Shown: in pieces, positions 48,747 to 59,835 of the stretch | Numbering within the stretch: position 1 is the first letter of the stretch | Layout of the letters: each line of letters opens with the position of its first letter | IMG/VR virus record: IMGVR_UViG_3300021387_001157 | Coordinates: 96,001 to 160,000 of that record | Strand: one strand, 5' to 3' | Source: a virus | Taxonomy: Duplodnaviria > Caudoviricetes | Length of the DNA: 64,000 nucleotides | Translations under genes and position numbers: made by a program | Notes under the pieces: model-generated | Told to the model about the DNA's origin: nothing | The model's database searches: none | Seen by the model: only the letters and a program-made list of their open reading frames with translations

Positions 48747-49400
48747 TTACCAATTGAAAGCATAACCAAATCTTTCGTCTGGACGATTTGGAACTGGATA
48801 CACGGGGTTATACGATGAAACAGAACCATCAACAGAAGATACATATGCTTGTACGTCTTGATTTCCAAAGATGTATAAAGGTTCCTTTTCGATTTGACCA
48901 GATTCTTTACGAAGGACACAGTGTCTTGAATGTGGTTTTACACAATTTGCTCTCATCATTGCATCATAGGCGTGTGCAAAATCAATTCCCATAGGGTTAA
49001 ATTTGTTCATTGGTTCGTCACCAAGCCAAAGACTGCTCGGAATTGAGTCATAGATTGTCGAGTCTACAGTATGTGTTATCAAATATATATCCATATCTCC
49101 AGACATTGAATCGGGTGCAAACGTAACAACTGAGAATATGTTTGTAACACTTGCAATATCGAAAACATCAGAGGAATCAATCCAGTCCTTTGAATCAATA
49201 CAGCACTCGAGCCAACGATAGTCTTTGAAATTTACAGTCATATACTCATTGTCAAGCATAATTGCTTTTTCAACGTCGACACCGGTAACATTATATGTAA
49301 GTGTATCATTTTCACCATCATTCTCTTGATGGCAAGAACTGCAAGAAATCGTAAAGACGGTAAGAAAAACCATCATCATAACAGTAAAAATCTTTTTCAT
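48747..49400 (-). CDS. Lipoprotein, paralog of 30563-31243
   Basis: Lipobox TISC; shared Cys motifs. Confidence 0.75.
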   Translation of the reverse strand: MKKIFTVMMMVFLTVFTISCSSCHQENDGENDTLTYNVTGVDVEKAIMLDNEYMTVNFKDYRWLECCIDSKDWIDSSDVFDIASVTNIFSVVTFAPDSMSGDMDIYLITHTVDSTIYDSIPSSLWLGDEPMNKFNPMGIDFAHAYDAMMRANCVKPHSRHCVLRKESGQIEKEPLYIFGNQDVQAYVSSVDGSVSSYNPVYPVPNRPDERFGYAFNW

Positions 49401-49525
49401 TTTTTGTGTATTTTTGTATATTATTATTTATTGTTTTGTAATCTAAATATAACAAAAAAGGTGTGATTTTTCACACCTAGATACAAATCTGACTTGGTTT
49501 TTTCATATTGTTATATTTGATTTTG

Positions 49526-49896
49526 TGACACCGGTGGGACTCGAACCCACGACCCCAGCATTAACTTACCACACTTGCTTTTATACAAGTCATCTCATTG
49601 AGACGTTGTAGTCTGGACTATTTCTTAACCATGCTTTACAGTTTAGGTCTCCACCTATATAGTCTCTACGCCATTTACACATTTCTGTGCTTTAGAGAGC
49701 CGTCGCCAAAGTCTATGTCACCATAGACGAGGTTTCCGTTTGTTAGGGTGGATTCTACATCCCGACAGCATTAATTGTCGTTTTCTCCTTTCAGAAAGGA
49801 TGCACTCTTTTTTGATTATGTTCTTTTCCATAAACTTTGTTATGAAAAGCACAAATCAGTCAAAGTGCCGTGCTCTACCTACTGAGCTACGGTGTC
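49526..49896 (-). tRNA. tRNA-Lys(TTT) interrupted by a group I intron
   Basis: Exons CGGCA-CTT and TTAA-TGCTG join to give loop CTTTTAA. Confidence 0.88.
49565..49862 (-). ncRNA. Group I intron (298 nt) after U34
   Basis: R-like GTAGAGACTATA, S-like AAGAAATAGTCCAG, terminal G. Confidence 0.88.
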
Positions 49897-50467
49897 AAAT
49901 TGACAGAAGTTCTTCAAGTTTTTCATTTTTTGTTCTGACTTGTGTCGACAAACTTGTGTATCGGTGAATACTTTCATTCGGCTCTGTCAAACCGTCCAAA
50001 AAAACTATCACAACTCTGGACTCTCTTCAGCATCCCTTTGAAGTCTTATGAGTCTTCGATTCTCGACAGGACACCACTCCCAAAGAAAGTGTTTTAGAGC
50101 TCATTATACACAATCTATCGAGGAAAAATCTGCTTCGGATGCATCGTGGGTTATCCCCTACCACGGGTAGAATGTTTATCGTCTCACATACCATTGACGT
50201 TAGCGAAACTATTTTGCATGACTCGGGGACTCGAACCTCCATCTCCACAGTTGGACCCGTGTTGTTCTACCGAATTAAACTATCGCCACTAGACGAGGTT
50301 TTGGACACCTCGTTTGTGATAATGGGTGGATTCGAACCACCATAGCCAAGAGTCTTTTCGTCTCAGTCAAGTATAGACCATGCTATCGTGGATAGTCTAT
50401 ATGACCTTCAAACGATTACTAATTAATCTTGTAGCACATCCTATCTGCTTCACACTATCATATTTTG

Positions 50468-50606
50468 CAGGAGTGGGAGGATTCGAACCACCGTCTACGG
50501 TTTTGTGACTATATATCAATTTCTCAATATATAACCTAGAATTAAAGGCTCTCACAGGACCTCACCCTGTATGGAGACCGTCATTCTGCCACTGAACTAC
50601 ACTCCT
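50468..50606 (-). tRNA. tRNA-Trp(CCA) with a 68-nt insert in the anticodon loop (50504-50571)
   Basis: ACGGT-CTCCA[insert]AA-ACCGT. Confidence 0.8.
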
Positions 50607-50726
50607 ATATTTGATACGACACTGAGATTCGAACTCTAAACCCCTTCACCCATTTAAGGGAGTTATCTGACCGTCGTCAGTCCCAGCATTGGGAGTGTGC
50701 TACTATTACACCATATCGTAATTTTG

Positions 50727-50800
50727 GGTGGTAAGTGAGATTCGAACTCACACTTCCGGTTCCACAGACCGACGTGCTAACCATTAACACTATAACCACC
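50727..50800 (-). tRNA. tRNA-His(GTG), G-1 encoded
   Basis: Loop CTGTGGA; G-1:C73. Confidence 0.88.
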
Positions 50801-50810
50801 ATATTTTTTG

Positions 50811-50884
50811 TTGCCATGATGGGACTCGAACCCACGACCACCTGCATATCCGGCAGGTGCTCTAACCGTCTGAGATACATGACA
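50811..50884 (-). tRNA. tRNA with GAT anticodon and atypical loop CGGATAT (G33)
   Basis: Full cloverleaf but non-canonical positions 33 and 38. Confidence 0.6.
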
Positions 50885-50966
50885 GATGACATGCCAACAA
50901 TGCATAAAATTAAGTCCTAATCAACCATCACGTGTTTTGGTTTTTCGAAAATAACCCGATACATCG

Positions 50967-51040
50967 TACCGTCGGGTGGATTTGAACCACCGAATGCAGC
51001 CTTATGAGAGCTGTGTCTTAGACCACTTGACGACGACGGC
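50967..51040 (-). tRNA. tRNA-Met/Ile2(CAT)
   Basis: Loop CTCATAA. Confidence 0.85.
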
Positions 51041-51172
51041 ATATAAATTCAGACGATGAGACTTGAACCCATACTCCAATGCAGGAACCGGTTTTTCTTG
51101 GAAATTGCTGACTTATTCTTTACATTGACCAAGAATATCCCTAATTCGACCAGCGTGTCTACCTTTCACTTG

Positions 51173-51246
51173 TACCCACGATGGGACTCGAACCCACAAA
51201 TCCTACATCCTAAGTGTAGTGCCTATTCCAATTCGGCTACGAGGGT
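51173..51246 (-). tRNA. tRNA with TAG (Leu) anticodon and no long variable arm
   Basis: Loop CTTAGGA; short variable loop. Confidence 0.75.
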
Positions 51247-51442
51247 GTTTTATTAGTGGAGTTATGTGGATTCGAACTTCATCTTCCAAACATCCATCAA
51301 TGTTCCTTTGACAAATGTAAGGTCTGATGAAGGGGGCAAAAGTTTTATAAAACCCCCACACACCCTCCTGTAACAAGTCTGTACACAACCATTACAGCCG
51401 GCTTCCAGCCCGTTTAAGAGAACTTAACCCCGTTTTTTTTTG

Positions 51443-51514
51443 AGCAGGTGATGGTAATCGAAACCACATATCCAGCTTGGAAGGCTGGCATACTAACCAT
51501 TGTACTACACCTGC
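51443..51514 (-). tRNA. tRNA-Gly(TCC)
   Basis: Loop CTTCCAA; U73. Confidence 0.88.
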
Positions 51515-51678
51515 TTGTTAAATATACAAGAACCGACCGGACTCGAACCTGCACTGACTGTCGTATTAAAACCTTTCGGTCTACCGTCCTACATTTACAA
51601 GGGACTCACCCCTTTCCAGTACTCATACAATTCGTGGCGAGAGTATACCAATTCCTCCTCACAGTCCTTGTCTATTTG

Positions 51679-51755
51679 TGTTGCTGGTTGGATTCGAACC
51701 AACGACCTTCTGTGTATCAGACAGATGCTCTAAAAACCAACTGAGCTACAGCAAC
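51679..51755 (-). tRNA. tRNA-Ile(GAT)
   Basis: Loop CTGATAC. Confidence 0.85.
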
Positions 51756-51763
51756 ATATTCTG

Positions 51764-51940
51764 TGGTGAGGGTAGGATTCGAACCTACGAACTCCGAAGA
51801 GGGCAGATTGCTCTGTATGCCAGACTCGAACTGACTATTTATGTTTATCATAAATTCTCCCGAATGAGTTTATACAGAGTTTGATTTTCAGTTTTCTCTG
51901 TATTACAGTCTGCTGCCATTAACCACTCGGCCACCTCACC
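51764..51940 (-). tRNA. tRNA-Tyr(GTA) with a 94-nt insert in the anticodon loop (about 51810-51903)
   Basis: GCAGA-CTGTA[insert]AA-TCTGC; long variable arm. Confidence 0.82.
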
Positions 51941-52130
51941 AAATTTGCAAGCTACAAACGTTTTCTCGGAACTTAACTTGCTGTGTTGTACTTCCACAAT
52001 AGTTTTGGGTGCTTTATCCTCACACCTCGTGGTTCTGATTTATCTAGTCAATTCAGAACAAACCCTGCTTTGCTCCGTTCCAATGCACTTATTGTCTTTG
52101 GCACTAGAATCGCTTAACAGTACAATCTTG

Positions 52131-52207
52131 TGCAGACAATGGGACTCGAACCCATAACCACCCACCGGTTTAGAGCAGGCACTCTACCATCATTGAGTTA
52201 TGTCCAC
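52131..52207 (-). tRNA. Atypical tRNA, possible CTA (amber) anticodon
   Basis: CTCTAAA in an imperfect anticodon arm; an alternative fold gives a 9-nt loop. Confidence 0.45.
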
Positions 52208-52212
52208 TTTTG

Positions 52213-52286
52213 TGGGACCGAGCCGATTTGAACGGATACCTCCAGATTTTCAGTCTGGCGTGACACACCAGTTACACCACAGTCCC
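52213..52286 (-). tRNA. tRNA-Phe(GAA)
   Basis: Loop CTGAAAA. Confidence 0.85.
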
Positions 52287-52321
52287 AATTTGAGGTTTTT
52301 GATGAACCTCTTAACATTTTG

Positions 52322-52444
52322 TCGGGAGGGTGGGACTCGAACCCACGACCACGGCTACCCAAAAGCTATTAGAAAAACGTTGCTGTTTGATTCTTTACCA
52401 AGAATCTATCATTTACGTGCTCTAACCAACTGAGCTACCTCCCG
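52322..52444 (-). tRNA. tRNA-Pro(TGG) with a 49-nt insert at 28/29 (52367-52415)
   Basis: CG[insert]GCT-TTTGGGT-AGCCG. Confidence 0.8.
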
Positions 52445-52549
52445 TTCTTAAAAAAAGCAGACCCGCTTACCAACTACTTGACCGAGGGCTGTCTCCCCTT
52501 TCGAGGTGCCTTCGTTGGTGGACTTGAACCACTCCCATATCTGCTATTG

Positions 52550-52624
52550 TGGGACCCCAGGGAGTTGAACCCCAGCCTCCGGATTTTCAGTCCGGCGTAC
52601 AATTACCACCTATACGAGAGTCCC
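52550..52624 (-). tRNA. tRNA-Phe(GAA), second copy
   Basis: Loop CTGAAAA. Confidence 0.85.
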
Positions 52625-52971
52625 AAAAAAACGAGTATATACTTATGAATCCTCGTCATCCTATATACCCCACGACCAAACTAAACGTGTTGACCTGCTC
52701 CATAGTTTACTTAATGGCCTCCAGTATAAGCGAATGTACTCGTTTGTGAAATATGGTGGGACTTGAACCCACGGCCTCCCCCGGCGGGGGGTGCTCTACC
52801 AACTGAGCTACACAATCACTTCCGAATCACATGGAAAATGGTTCTTTATAGTACCAATAACCTTGTTTCCACCAGTTAGGTCAGGAACATACCTCCGCCT
52901 ATTTCTACCAAGACGGCTAATCCTCATCCTTTTATATCGCCCGACGAGGAACGGGCTATCACATGTGAGAG

Positions 52972-53045
52972 TGGACCACGATGGGATTCGAACCCACGAC
53001 CCTCTGACTGCCAGTCAGATGCTCTACCGACTGAGCTACGAGCCC
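52972..53045 (-). tRNA. tRNA-Ala(GGC)
   Basis: G3-U70; loop CTGGCAG; one extra nt in the acceptor 3' strand. Confidence 0.85.
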
Positions 53046-53141
53046 ATGAAAATTGAGTTGTTTAAGGTCTAACTCAAGACTAACGACCGGGGCTGTCATC
53101 GATTCCACCATCCGATTTTATACGACATCGGAAAACGTTAG

Positions 53142-53261
53142 CGGAGAGAGTGGGACTCGAACCCACGACTACGGTCGTGACAGGACATTGAAGAACGTTG
53201 CTGTATGATTCTTTTTCAAGAATACTCTATTTACGTGTTCTACCAACTGAACTACCTCTCC
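53142..53261 (-). tRNA. tRNA-Asp(GTC) with a 47-nt insert at 28/29 (53187-53233)
   Basis: CG[insert]GTC-CTGTCAC-GACCG. Confidence 0.8.
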
Positions 53262-53406
53262 ATTTTGAGTTGTTTTAAGTCCAACCCAAACGACTGGGGC
53301 TTGCCGGTTTGAATCCGACGAGCGGTTCCACCATCCGATTTTATACGACATCGGAAAACGTTAACAAGAATCCATAGAATAGTTCAGTAAAATATAGAAA
53401 AATATT

Positions 53407-53735
53407 CTAATATCTTACATTTTGTTCGAGGTTCATAGAACTTGCTACTGCTTGTTCTCCCACTCGCTTAAATTCGGGTGAACTCAACCCTATTATTCGT
53501 TTTCCTTCTTCTAGTATATTCTTTGCTGCGTTAATATCTCTGTCGTGTACAACACCACATTCAGGACAAAACCCACTCTCTATCAGAGAGTTGTAATAAG
53601 TCATTTTTATAACCACAGCAATAACATGTCTTTGATGAAGGATAAAATCTATCTATAAAGATTACTTTTTTATCATTCCAAGATGCTTTGTATTGAATTA
53701 TTTGTTTTTAACTCACAGAAACTAACATCCAGTGT
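53407..53735 (-). pseudogene. tnpB: IS200/IS605 TnpB C-terminal remnant, frameshifted
   Basis: QIIQYKASWNDKKVIFIDRFYPSSKTCYCCG in one frame, CPECGVVHDRDINAAKNIL in another. Confidence 0.85.
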
Positions 53736-53745
53736 TTTATCTTAG

Positions 53746-53819
53746 TGGACACAGATGGGAATCGAACCCATGACTACCTGTTTGCAAAACAGGAGTTCTA
53801 CCAACTGAACTACTGGCCC
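53746..53819 (-). tRNA. tRNA-Ala(TGC)
   Basis: G3-U70; loop TTTGCAA; one extra nt in the acceptor 3' strand. Confidence 0.85.
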
Positions 53820-53877
53820 ATGAAAATTGAGTTGTTTAAGGTCTAACTCAAGACTAACGACACTAACTTACCAATTG

Positions 53878-53962
53878 TGCCCAAGACAGGACTTGAACCT
53901 GCACTCCCTAAACGGGAACCAGCCCCTCAAGCTGGCGTGTCTACCAATTCCACCACCTGGGC
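53878..53962 (-). tRNA. tRNA-Leu(GAG)
   Basis: Class II body; loop TTGAGGG. Confidence 0.9.
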
Positions 53963-54019
53963 ATTTGTTGTTTTTAATGCTTCTATATATTTTTTAGTTC
54001 ATTTTTTTAGTTCAAATTG

Positions 54020-58997: not shown

Positions 58998-59124
58998 AAT
59001 TGCCGTTTCTGTCTTTGTTGCAGAAGACTAACGGCTGTGTGGAAACTGTCTCCTGACATTACACTGCAACAACGTATGTCTCTTGAAACGTGATGACAAC
59101 CACAATCCTTCACGATTGATTTTG

Positions 59125-59242
59125 CAGGGTGGGTAGGATTCGAACCTACGTCACGGCTACCAAAAAGCAAAGAAAACGTATTGCTGTAAGATTCTTTCAC
59201 AAGAATCAAAAATACGTGTCCTAACCACTAGACGACCACCCA
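59125..59242 (-). tRNA. tRNA-Gln(TTG) with a 46-nt insert at 28/29 (59169-59214)
   Basis: CG[insert]GCT-TTTTGGT-AGCCG. Confidence 0.8.
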
Positions 59243-59399: not shown

Positions 59400-59750
59400 C
59401 TGTGAGAGTTGAACAATCTCTCGTTCAATTCCCATCTCCGTTGTTTTGGTACAAGGAGAAAACCTGCCCTTAAAGACATTGGTCTAAACTACCACCGATT
59501 AGGCAGCAGCGAGCATCACCATTTCGTTGGTGTTGTTGTTAAAGTTGCCATTTACTGACAAGATGAGTCTCTACGCTTTTCATAATGATACAGCATCAAA
59601 TCCAAGTCATCCCCATGTTACCTCGATAGTTCTGTCTCGTATAGACCGCCCAATGTTGAATGTTTTTTCTACACTGAACAAACTGGTGGAGATGTTGGGG
59701 TTCGAACCCAAGTCTACCATACTTTCCTAAAAGTTTCAAACGAAACCCAT
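59400..59750 (-). ncRNA. ssrA: Circularly permuted (two-piece) tmRNA
   Basis: Acceptor piece ends CATCTCC-A-CCA at 59684; coding piece starts GGGGATG at 59614; G3-U70; tag frame 59549-59499 encodes GNFNNNTNEMVMLAAA*. Confidence 0.85.
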
Positions 59751-59835
59751 TTGTGATGTCACGGGAGTCGAACCCGTCAAAATTCCAAAGACATCTGATT
59801 CTATTTATGTTTTTTTATTTTCGAAATTTTTTTAG

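Follow-up and report, generated by a model that had tools for sequence, protein, structure and literature searches.

A tRNA-shaped insert in the anticodon loop of a phage tRNA-Tyr gene belongs to a family of inserts in large gut phages

Results

The Only tRNA-Tyr Gene of the Phage Is Interrupted in Its Anticodon Loop

The DNA analyzed here, which we call the window, is a 64,000-nt stretch corresponding to bases 96001-160000 of a 193.8-kb IMG/VR phage record (67% complete by estimate; 34.9% GC). A sequencing run labeled as gut metagenome (X1) contains 99% of this stretch and may be its source, and bovine and sheep gut runs contain DNA that matches it in part. About 40 tRNA genes and a permuted tmRNA lie on the minus strand at ~48.6-63.5 kb, in addition to a small cluster at 30.3 kb, and all the tRNA matches of the 194-kb record fall inside the window (Table 1). 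An earlier note on this DNA had singled out one gene of the array as the only tRNA-Tyr in the window, which proved correct since it is the sole tRNA with a GTA anticodon. The only tRNA-Tyr gene and the only tRNA-Trp gene of this genome are both interrupted. Both an ENA assembly (L132) and a Logan contig (L133), possibly from the same sample as the window, contain an identical tRNA-Tyr gene. The array also includes a suppressor-type tRNA with a CTA anticodon; it led us to look for recoding of TAG, of which a simple genome-wide count of stop-to-stop ORFs gave no clear sign.

Table 1. Position of the interrupted tRNA-Tyr gene, its parts, and other features of the phage
Feature	Position	Strand	Description
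Interrupted tRNA-Tyr(GTA) gene	51764-51940	minus	class II body, A73, C74, CCA not encoded
5' exon	51904-51940	minus	37 nt, nucleotides 1-36, last bases CTGTA
tRNA-shaped insert (putative intron)	51810-51903	minus	94 nt, after nucleotide 36
Family 5' element	51880-51903	minus	ATAC start, hairpin CAG-AGAAAA-CTG, A-rich spacer AAAATCAAA
Acceptor-like stem, 5' strand	51872-51879	minus	CTCTGTAT, 8/8 pairs with 51811-51818
D-like arm	51857-51868	minus	CTC-ATTCGG-GAG, GG in loop
Hairpin at anticodon-arm position	51837-51855	minus	ATTTATG-ATAAA-CATAAAT, 7 bp, 5-nt loop; not a decoding loop
T arm	51819-51835	minus	GTCAG-TTCGAGT-CTGGC, 5/5 pairs
Acceptor-like stem, 3' strand, and terminal C	51810-51818	minus	ATACAGAG (51811-51818), then C; 3' junction after C
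3' exon	51764-51809	minus	nucleotides 37-73, first bases AATCTGC
tRNA-Lys(UUU)	49525-49896	minus	insert of 298 nt, group I size
tRNA-Trp(CCA)	50467-50606	minus	insert of 68 nt; counterpart at L121:15012-15151
Suppressor-type tRNA	52130-52207	minus	anticodon CTA
tRNA-Pro(TGG)	52321-52444	minus	~48-nt insert
tRNA-Asp(GTC)	53141-53261	minus	~48-nt insert
tRNA-Gln(TTG)	59124-59242	minus	~48-nt insert
Permuted tmRNA	59408-59776	minus	inside tRNA array; Rfam tmRNA_permuted, 63 bits
Rnl2-type RNA ligase	1497-2495	minus	Pfam RNA_ligase 2e-21, T4_Rnl2_C 5.6e-19; phrog_548 3e-63
RNA-repair cluster	L207:1161-10202 (= G000:C1:160161-169202)		past the window end, genes on one strand
CCA-adding enzyme			cluster gene, 478 aa
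RNA ligase			cluster gene, 225 aa, L207:3486-4163
140-aa protein			cluster gene, weak 2H/CPD-like match
RNA ligase			cluster gene, 525 aa, phrog_968, L207:6703-8280
Metallophosphoesterase			cluster gene, phrog_547, L207:8557-9030
Polynucleotide kinase			cluster gene, phrog_505, 1.2e-30, L207:9233-9769
NADAR protein			cluster gene

The whole tRNA-Tyr gene matches Rfam model RF00005 with 45.3 bits and a single 95-nt insertion, which the alignment places in the anticodon loop. When the insert is removed in silico, ARAGORN calls a tRNA-Tyr(gta) at default settings, and the exons have A73 and a long variable arm, as in bacterial tRNA-Tyr. Their sequence is GACTGTA...AATCTGCC, next to GACTGTAAATCTGCC in intron-less phage tRNA-Tyr genes, and we set the end of the 5' exon from these intron-less genes and from the family rule described below. 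The Asp(gtc) call that ARAGORN makes for the interrupted gene was rejected, its boundary being shifted and the class II body not fitting a tRNA-Asp.

The Insert Mimics the Top Half of a tRNA

All the stems listed in the earlier note (acceptor-like, D-like, hairpin, and T arm) are present on the minus strand, together with the repeat of ATACAGAG, the second copy of which forms the first 8 nt of the insert (51896-51903). In folding calculations, the insert reaches a z-score of -3.25, with 1 of 200 shuffles folding equally well. The cloverleaf with the small 5' hairpin has a free energy of -20.2 kcal/mol, compared with -20.9 kcal/mol for the minimum free energy (MFE) structure, and an 8/8 partner for the 3' strand of the acceptor-like stem occurs in 0.1% of shuffles (P = 0.001). 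Together with the 13 other inserts described below, which share the same layout, these values show that the structure of the insert exceeds chance.

The insert is nevertheless tRNA-shaped and not a decodable tRNA, since it alone has no match to RF00005 at E ≤ 10, is called by ARAGORN only at a lowered threshold, and presents at the anticodon position a 7-bp stem with a 5-nt loop. It does have the parts expected, on structural inference, of a substrate for RNase P and RNase Z, namely a 13-bp stack, a TTCGAGT loop, and GG in the D-like loop. The original proposal that the insert folds as a cloverleaf is upheld in the form of a mimic of the tRNA top half. Bacterial tRNA-Sec has an 8/5 acceptor/T geometry, also giving a 13-bp stack; the mimic shares this 8 + 5 bp stack but is without a decoding anticodon loop.

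Fourteen Inserts in Seven Virus Records Share One Layout

By following a neighboring protein and by scanning for motifs, we reached related records and collected 14 inserts of one layout, from seven virus records and in 10 tRNA types. Apart from the tRNA-Tyr of the window, they interrupt tRNA-Arg and tRNA-fMet in G002, tRNA-Phe and tRNA-Arg in G004, two tRNA-Gly and one tRNA-Pro in the Lak-type records G003 and G005, tRNA-Asn, tRNA-Tyr, tRNA-Thr, and tRNA-Lys in L202, and tRNA-Phe and tRNA-Tyr in L204, with up to four insert-bearing tRNA genes in one phage. The inserts are 74-115 nt long. In all 14, the (A/T)TA(A/C) start is followed by a small hairpin, whose loop is of the ARUAAA type, and by a spacer rich in A. 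All 14 also have a T stem of 5 bp capped by a T(T/C)CGAnT loop; beyond the stem come exactly 8 nt, then one C, then exon 2. The acceptor-like stem of 8 bp is fully paired (8/8) in 13 members, its sequence varying from one to the next and its pairing having a shuffle P of 0.001 to 0.07 per member. While GG is found in the D-like region or loop of 13/14 members, the middle part is variable, and the hairpin at the anticodon-arm position is variable or missing in the other members. The family fold is the MFE structure in half of them (7/14).

Comparison between members shows which parts are held constant. The tRNA-Tyr genes of L202 and L204 have identical exons and 5' elements around different mimic sequences, and the 5' element of the window (ATACAGAGAAAACTGAAAATCAAA) differs by 1 nt from the one in these two tRNA-Tyr inserts. 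Where orthologous exons could be compared, in tRNA-Arg (L130 and L199) and in the interrupted tRNA-Trp (window and L121), the differences are confined to loops or are wobble or compensatory changes.

The exact insert of the window was sought by several routes. A megablast of positions 49000-54000 against GenBank phages gave no match; an exact-pattern scan for AGACTGTAATACAG in viral contigs gave at least 103 chance matches, none a tRNA among the matches listed; no matches came from viral contigs searched with a 3'-junction pattern or from metagenome contigs searched with a pattern of both junctions; and a search with the 5'-exon pattern matched only intron-less phage tRNA-Tyr genes. Contigs encoding homologs of the neighboring 217-aa protein either stop at the tRNA array or are without an array. 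These sequence and pattern searches found no ortholog in which covariation with this insert could be examined. The comparison with related phages that the earlier note had called for thus yielded the family layout in 13 other inserts and no ortholog of the exact one.

Inserts of this kind have been described before. Devoto et al. 2019 (PMC6784885, Fig. 4 and Table S6) reported "enigmatic" introns, listed in Tyr, Phe, Thr, and Gly tRNAs, in Lak megaphages and remarked that one of them "may encode a tRNA," a suggestion ("could encode another tRNA") repeated for such introns in a 2026 survey of jumbo phages (PMC13037316). The Lak introns of Table S6 resemble the insert of the window in that they start with (A/T)TA(A)CA and a hairpin and continue with an A/T-rich spacer and an acceptor-like stem, to which are added a T arm of the TTCGAAT type and a C at the end. 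The start of a Lak Gly intron, ATACAAGAATAAACTTGT, is identical but for one position to the start of the Arg insert in G002. Conversely, the insert of the window has the marks of the Lak type: a place in the anticodon loop of an intact tRNA gene, the 5' element, the 8-bp/5-bp stack, and the terminal C. The phages themselves are unlike, with a genome of ~290 kb and 35% GC for the window compared with 540 kb and 26% GC for Lak, and so are the host tRNA and the mimic sequence. The window gene is a member of a published family for which our literature search retrieved no paper proposing a mechanism, the published accounts containing neither the boundary rule nor the link to C74 set out below.

One Boundary Rule Fits All the Inserts

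A single rule delimits the inserts in 14/14 cases: they run from the (A/T)TA(A/C) start to the C located nine nucleotides past the T stem. It was fixed by members in which the anticodon is unambiguous, a tRNA-fMet (L130:5009-5190) with an initiator-like body that must carry CAT and a tRNA-Pro (L201) with a C1-G72/A73 body that must carry TGG. When the rule is applied to the 14 inserts, it yields canonical tRNAs at the default ARAGORN threshold in every case (14/14), each with an anticodon that suits its body, with the caveat that precise removability holds for any DNA insertion by construction. The Lak-type IMG/VR records (L196 and L201) follow the rule as well. It also corrects annotation, since ARAGORN and tRNAscan-type intron calls mis-assign the anticodons. 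For example, the gene listed as tRNA-Tyr(GTA) in Lak A1/A2 (Devoto 2019, Table S6) has a class I body and G73, and under the rule its loop reads CTGTTAA, that of a tRNA-Asn(GTT).

The junction thus defined falls at 35/36 or 36/37. Since it differs even among tRNA-Tyr genes (36/37 in the window, 35/36 in L202 and L204), it is the insert and not the host loop that would set the cut sites. All four bases occur before the 5' junction, the last base of the insert is always C, and exon 2 starts with A in 11 members, T in two, and G in one.

The 3' Junction Resembles the 3' Boundary of the Phages' Ordinary tRNA Genes

We compared this terminal C with the ends of ordinary tRNA genes, surveying positions 30293-63505 of the window and nine loci (L121, L130, L195, L196, L199, L200, L201, L202, and L204). 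Among the 34 tRNA genes called by ARAGORN in the window, 32 have a C at position 74, with A as the next base in 27, and CCA is scored as encoded in none (0/34), one tRNA-Ser seemingly encoding it. In the nine loci, which represent six related virus records, C74 is present in 142 of 148 tRNA genes and is followed by A or T. Almost none of the ordinary tRNA genes of these phages encode CCA. Overall, C74 is found in ~95% of the ordinary genes, and T at position -1 in ~75%. This suggests that C74 is retained and that processing is followed by the addition of CA only. When the count starts at the T stem, the terminal C of the mimic falls on position 74, in the same ...N-C/A pattern (the slash marking the boundary). 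With its C at position 74 followed mostly by A, the 3' junction copies the 3' boundary of the ordinary tRNA genes.

Precursors of tRNAs that lack an encoded CCA, several T4 tRNAs among them, rely on RNase BN/Z and a CCA-adding enzyme. A canonical RNase Z cut after position 73, by the T-arm count, would fall one nucleotide before the junction placed by the rule. To account for this offset, the 8-bp stem would have to shift the cut, or the nuclease would have to act after C74; in the 8/5 geometry, position 73 of the mimic is paired. At the other end, an RNase P cut at 51880/51879 would leave a tail of 24 nt (51880-51903) on exon 1, so that RNase P alone cannot make the 5' junction, which is marked throughout the family by the conserved (A/T)TA(A/C) start and the small hairpin. 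The idea that tRNA-processing nucleases help excise the insert therefore fits the 3' end, which lies where a tRNA 3'-end nuclease is expected to act, and fails for RNase P as sole author of the 5' end.

RNA-Library Contigs Contain Unspliced Sequence

The contigs of three RNA (metatranscriptome) runs and one DNA run were compared over positions 49400-53400. One RNA-library contig (run X18; 51857-52035) is unbroken over the boundary between 5' exon and insert, and may represent precursor RNA or carried-over DNA. A joint skipping 51810-51903 is absent among the 15 of 22 joints listed, which derive from tRNAs of other organisms. Since contigs cannot show RNA ends, and standard RNA-seq contigs rarely contain mature tRNAs, a missing joint does not count against splicing. 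The junction-spanning sequence that had been proposed as a check was seen only in its unspliced form, possibly from DNA, and at the 5' boundary only.

The Phage Encodes Three RNA Ligases and End-Healing Enzymes

The Rnl2-type protein that the earlier note put forward as a sealing enzyme is confirmed as an RNA ligase of that type, but it is neither the only nor the nearest one. Two further ligases belong to an RNA-repair cluster less than 10 kb from the tRNA array, which brings the number of RNA ligases in this phage to three. With ligases, a kinase, and a phosphoesterase at hand, 3'-OH/5'-P ends could be sealed directly or cyclic-phosphate/5'-OH ends could be healed first, so the chemistry of the ends is not to be read from the gene content. 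All the insert-bearing records except G004 (82% complete), which shows none, have RNA_ligase genes (six of seven); since RNA ligases are common in jumbo phages, this co-occurrence is weak evidence. Searches of the 67%-complete phage record found no genes for EndA (PF01974), RtcB, Tpt1, or an RNase Z-like protein (Lactamase_B_2), and RtcB is absent from all six insert-bearing records searched.

Other tRNA Genes of These Phages Carry Inserts of Different Kinds

Several tRNA genes of the window and its relatives are interrupted in other ways. A tRNA-Lys(UUU) has an insert of group I size, and G001 contains a different tRNA-Tyr with a ~225-nt group-I-like insert at 35/36 as well as another class II tRNA with such an insert (L121:12392-12697 and L121:5186-5523); none of the group-I-sized inserts in the window reaches the Rfam gathering score for group I. 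The insert of the only tRNA-Trp starts like the family, with ATACAGG and a 7-bp hairpin, and ends in a long hairpin and AC, not in a T-arm mimic. Between the window and L121 it shows four one-sided changes that retain the pairs.

A third kind, of ~48 nt, is common to a tRNA-Pro, a tRNA-Asp, and a tRNA-Gln, all mis-called by ARAGORN, and has variants in G001, G002, and G004. It consists of a hairpin, ATTCTTGnnAAAGAAT, followed by WWACAGCAA, and comes behind C27-G28 on the 5' strand of the anticodon stem. Each of these three genes duplicates an intron-less isoacceptor elsewhere in the array. Excision of this insert would leave a nick inside a duplex, the preferred substrate of Rnl2. Finally, two odd tRNA-like genes were seen: one (L130:4149-4263, equal to G002:343148-343262) has a second T arm, GCGG-TTCGAGT-CCGC, in mid-gene, and the other (L199:4929-5082) has an insert that starts with ACATCAG and a hairpin and contains an acceptor-like GCTATAT/ATATAGC stem without a T loop.

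Discussion

Our preferred reading, which we hold tentatively and rate just short of an even chance, is that the insert is an RNA intron of a tRNA-shaped family in jumbo and mega phages, with a 3' end made by a tRNA 3' nuclease and exons sealed by a phage ligase. We infer splicing itself from the integrity of the exons across the 14 members, and every enzymatic step is likewise deduced; the 3' cut is the best supported of these steps, by its geometry and by the parallel with C74. Such an intron would have no ribozyme core and would instead confront the enzymes trimming the phage's other tRNAs with a tRNA top half, with the 8-bp acceptor-like stem stacked on the 5-bp T stem and the T loop and GG-containing D-like loop able to form an elbow. 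After transcription of the tRNA array, an RNase Z/BN-type nuclease would cut after the single C of the mimic (51810/51809) and free exon 2. A second cut before AUAC (51904/51903), directed by the conserved 5' element, would free exon 1, and RNase P would probably also cut at the 5' end of the mimic. The exons would be held together by the pairing of the tRNA body until one of the three phage ligases seals the loop, after healing of the ends by the kinase and the phosphoesterase if needed. The expected product is a tRNA-Tyr with the anticodon loop CUGUAAA.

Two main rivals have to be weighed against this reading. In the first, which we consider unlikely, a dedicated metal-independent endonuclease of the phage or its host would recognize a three-way junction or the tRNA-shaped handle and cut both junctions, leaving 2',3'-cyclic phosphate and 5'-OH ends to be healed and sealed by a chemistry like that of fungal Trl1-type enzymes or T4 Pnkp/Rnl1, while RNase P and RNase Z would define no junction. 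A kinase, a metallophosphoesterase, a weak 2H/CPD-like protein, two ligases, and a NADAR protein are indeed clustered within 10 kb of the array, the (A/T)TA(A/C)-hairpin at the 5' junction resembles a protein recognition site, and the canonical RNase Z cut is off by one nucleotide. However, our searches turned up no endonuclease suited to this part, EndA being missing from the 67%-complete genome and RtcB from the six records searched, and heal-and-seal cassettes are well known to serve phages against the anticodon nucleases of their hosts, which makes a link to introns unneeded. A dedicated endonuclease also leaves unexplained why the acceptor, T, and elbow mimic is kept together with the C/A boundary.

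In the second, to which we also attach a low probability, the insert is a selfish tRNA-shaped DNA element that is not removed, so that the gene would be dead or would yield only a tRNA-like small RNA released by RNase P and RNase Z, with the host supplying tRNA-Tyr. This agrees with the unspliced sequence that alone was seen in RNA-library contigs (among the joints listed), with the different Tyr gene and ~225-nt group-I-like insert that the closest relative, G001, has here, and with the intron-less alleles in Lak phages (Devoto 2019, PMC6784885). The association of the same 5' element with different cargos in many tRNA types shows mobility. An unspliced element is hard to reconcile, however, with exons that are intact in 14/14 members and give canonical tRNAs once the insert is removed, or with orthologous exons whose changes are limited to loops or are wobble or compensatory. 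Furthermore, both the only Tyr and the only Trp gene of this genome are interrupted, and one phage can have as many as four tRNA genes with inserts of the family.

That the insert is a decayed group I intron, or a novel small RNA able to cleave or splice itself, appears very improbable. The conserved 5' element could belong to a ribozyme, and group-I-sized inserts occur nearby (298 nt in tRNA-Lys(UUU) here, and in the tRNA-Tyr of G001), but a group I core would not fit into 94 nt, or into the 74-115 nt of the family, no Rfam ribozyme or intron family matches at gathering score or at E ≤ 10, the base before the 5' junction is variable, the terminal base is C and not G, and the conserved parts are precisely those of the tRNA top half. 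Two known intron classes were rejected: a group I intron, with no RF00028 match that would reveal a P3-P8 core (gathering score or E ≤ 10), 94 nt as opposed to more than ~140 nt, A before the junction, and a terminal C; and an archaeal-type bulge-helix-bulge (BHB) intron, in which a 4-bp helix lies between two 3-nt bulges, with a 4/4 central helix possible in 5/14 members even when offsets are free, at most 3 pairs in 9/14, and EndA absent from the 67%-complete phage record. Least probable of all is the conformational switch originally raised on account of the ATACAGAG repeat, in which CTCTGTAT would pair with either the 5' or the 3' copy of ATACAGAG and so gate maturation: both pairings are 8/8 in the window insert, the full-precursor MFE structure uses the 5' pairing, and this would put a helix exactly at the 5' junction, but the alternative reaches 8/8 in no other member (7/8 in two relatives, 3-6/8 in the remaining eleven), lies 2.4 kcal/mol above the cloverleaf when the insert is folded alone, and involves a 5' copy that is simply the family's conserved start motif.

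The proposed intron can be set beside several known systems. Group I tRNA introns of bacteria, plastids, and phages (Leu-UAA, fMet, Arg-CCU, Ile-CAU) also interrupt the anticodon loop of bacterial-type tRNAs; unlike them, the tRNA-shaped insert of the window lacks a ribozyme core as well as the U that precedes the junction and the terminal G, and it is shorter by a factor of 3-4. Archaeal and eukaryal introns handled by EndA/Sen and RtcB/Trl1 offer a similar outline, in which proteins cut, the tRNA body holds the exons, and a ligase joins them, and Trl1-like ligase, kinase, and phosphoesterase activities are present in this phage as separate genes. They differ in that no conserved BHB was found, nor EndA in this genome (67% complete) or RtcB in the six records searched, and in that the position of the junction follows the intron and not the tRNA. 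MALAT1 (which gives mascRNA) and MEN-beta have tRNA-like 3' modules that are processed by RNase P and RNase Z. An embedded tRNA mimic that directs tRNA end-processing cuts is common to both cases, but the phage mimic lies within another tRNA, and its flanks would need to be rejoined. In T4, which also has Rnl2, Pnkp and Rnl1 repair the cleaved anticodon loop of tRNA-Lys. There too a phage ligase seals a break in the anticodon loop, and the same enzyme families are encoded here, but in T4 the break is damage by a host nuclease, whereas the break proposed for this phage would be programmed and part of tRNA maturation.

Splicing of tRNA introns by proteins is considered an archaeal and eukaryal trait and, to our knowledge, all tRNA introns reported so far in bacteria and their viruses are self-splicing group I (rarely group II) ribozymes. 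The family described here has no ribozyme, is widespread in large gut phages, and has gone unexplained in print since 2019. Our analysis gives it new handles, namely a single boundary rule, a 3' junction that equals the phages' own boundary between C74 and A or T, and a defined 5' element, and it offers a gene set beside the array with three ligases, a kinase, a phosphoesterase, and a CCA-adding enzyme. It is possible, if rather doubtful, that phages of gut bacteria practice a protein-only tRNA splicing new to the bacterial world, in which the nuclease that cuts after C74 would make the 3' splice site, the AUAC-hairpin would direct the 5' cut, phage ligases would join the exons, and the mimic, once excised, may live on as a small RNA with a CCA tail.
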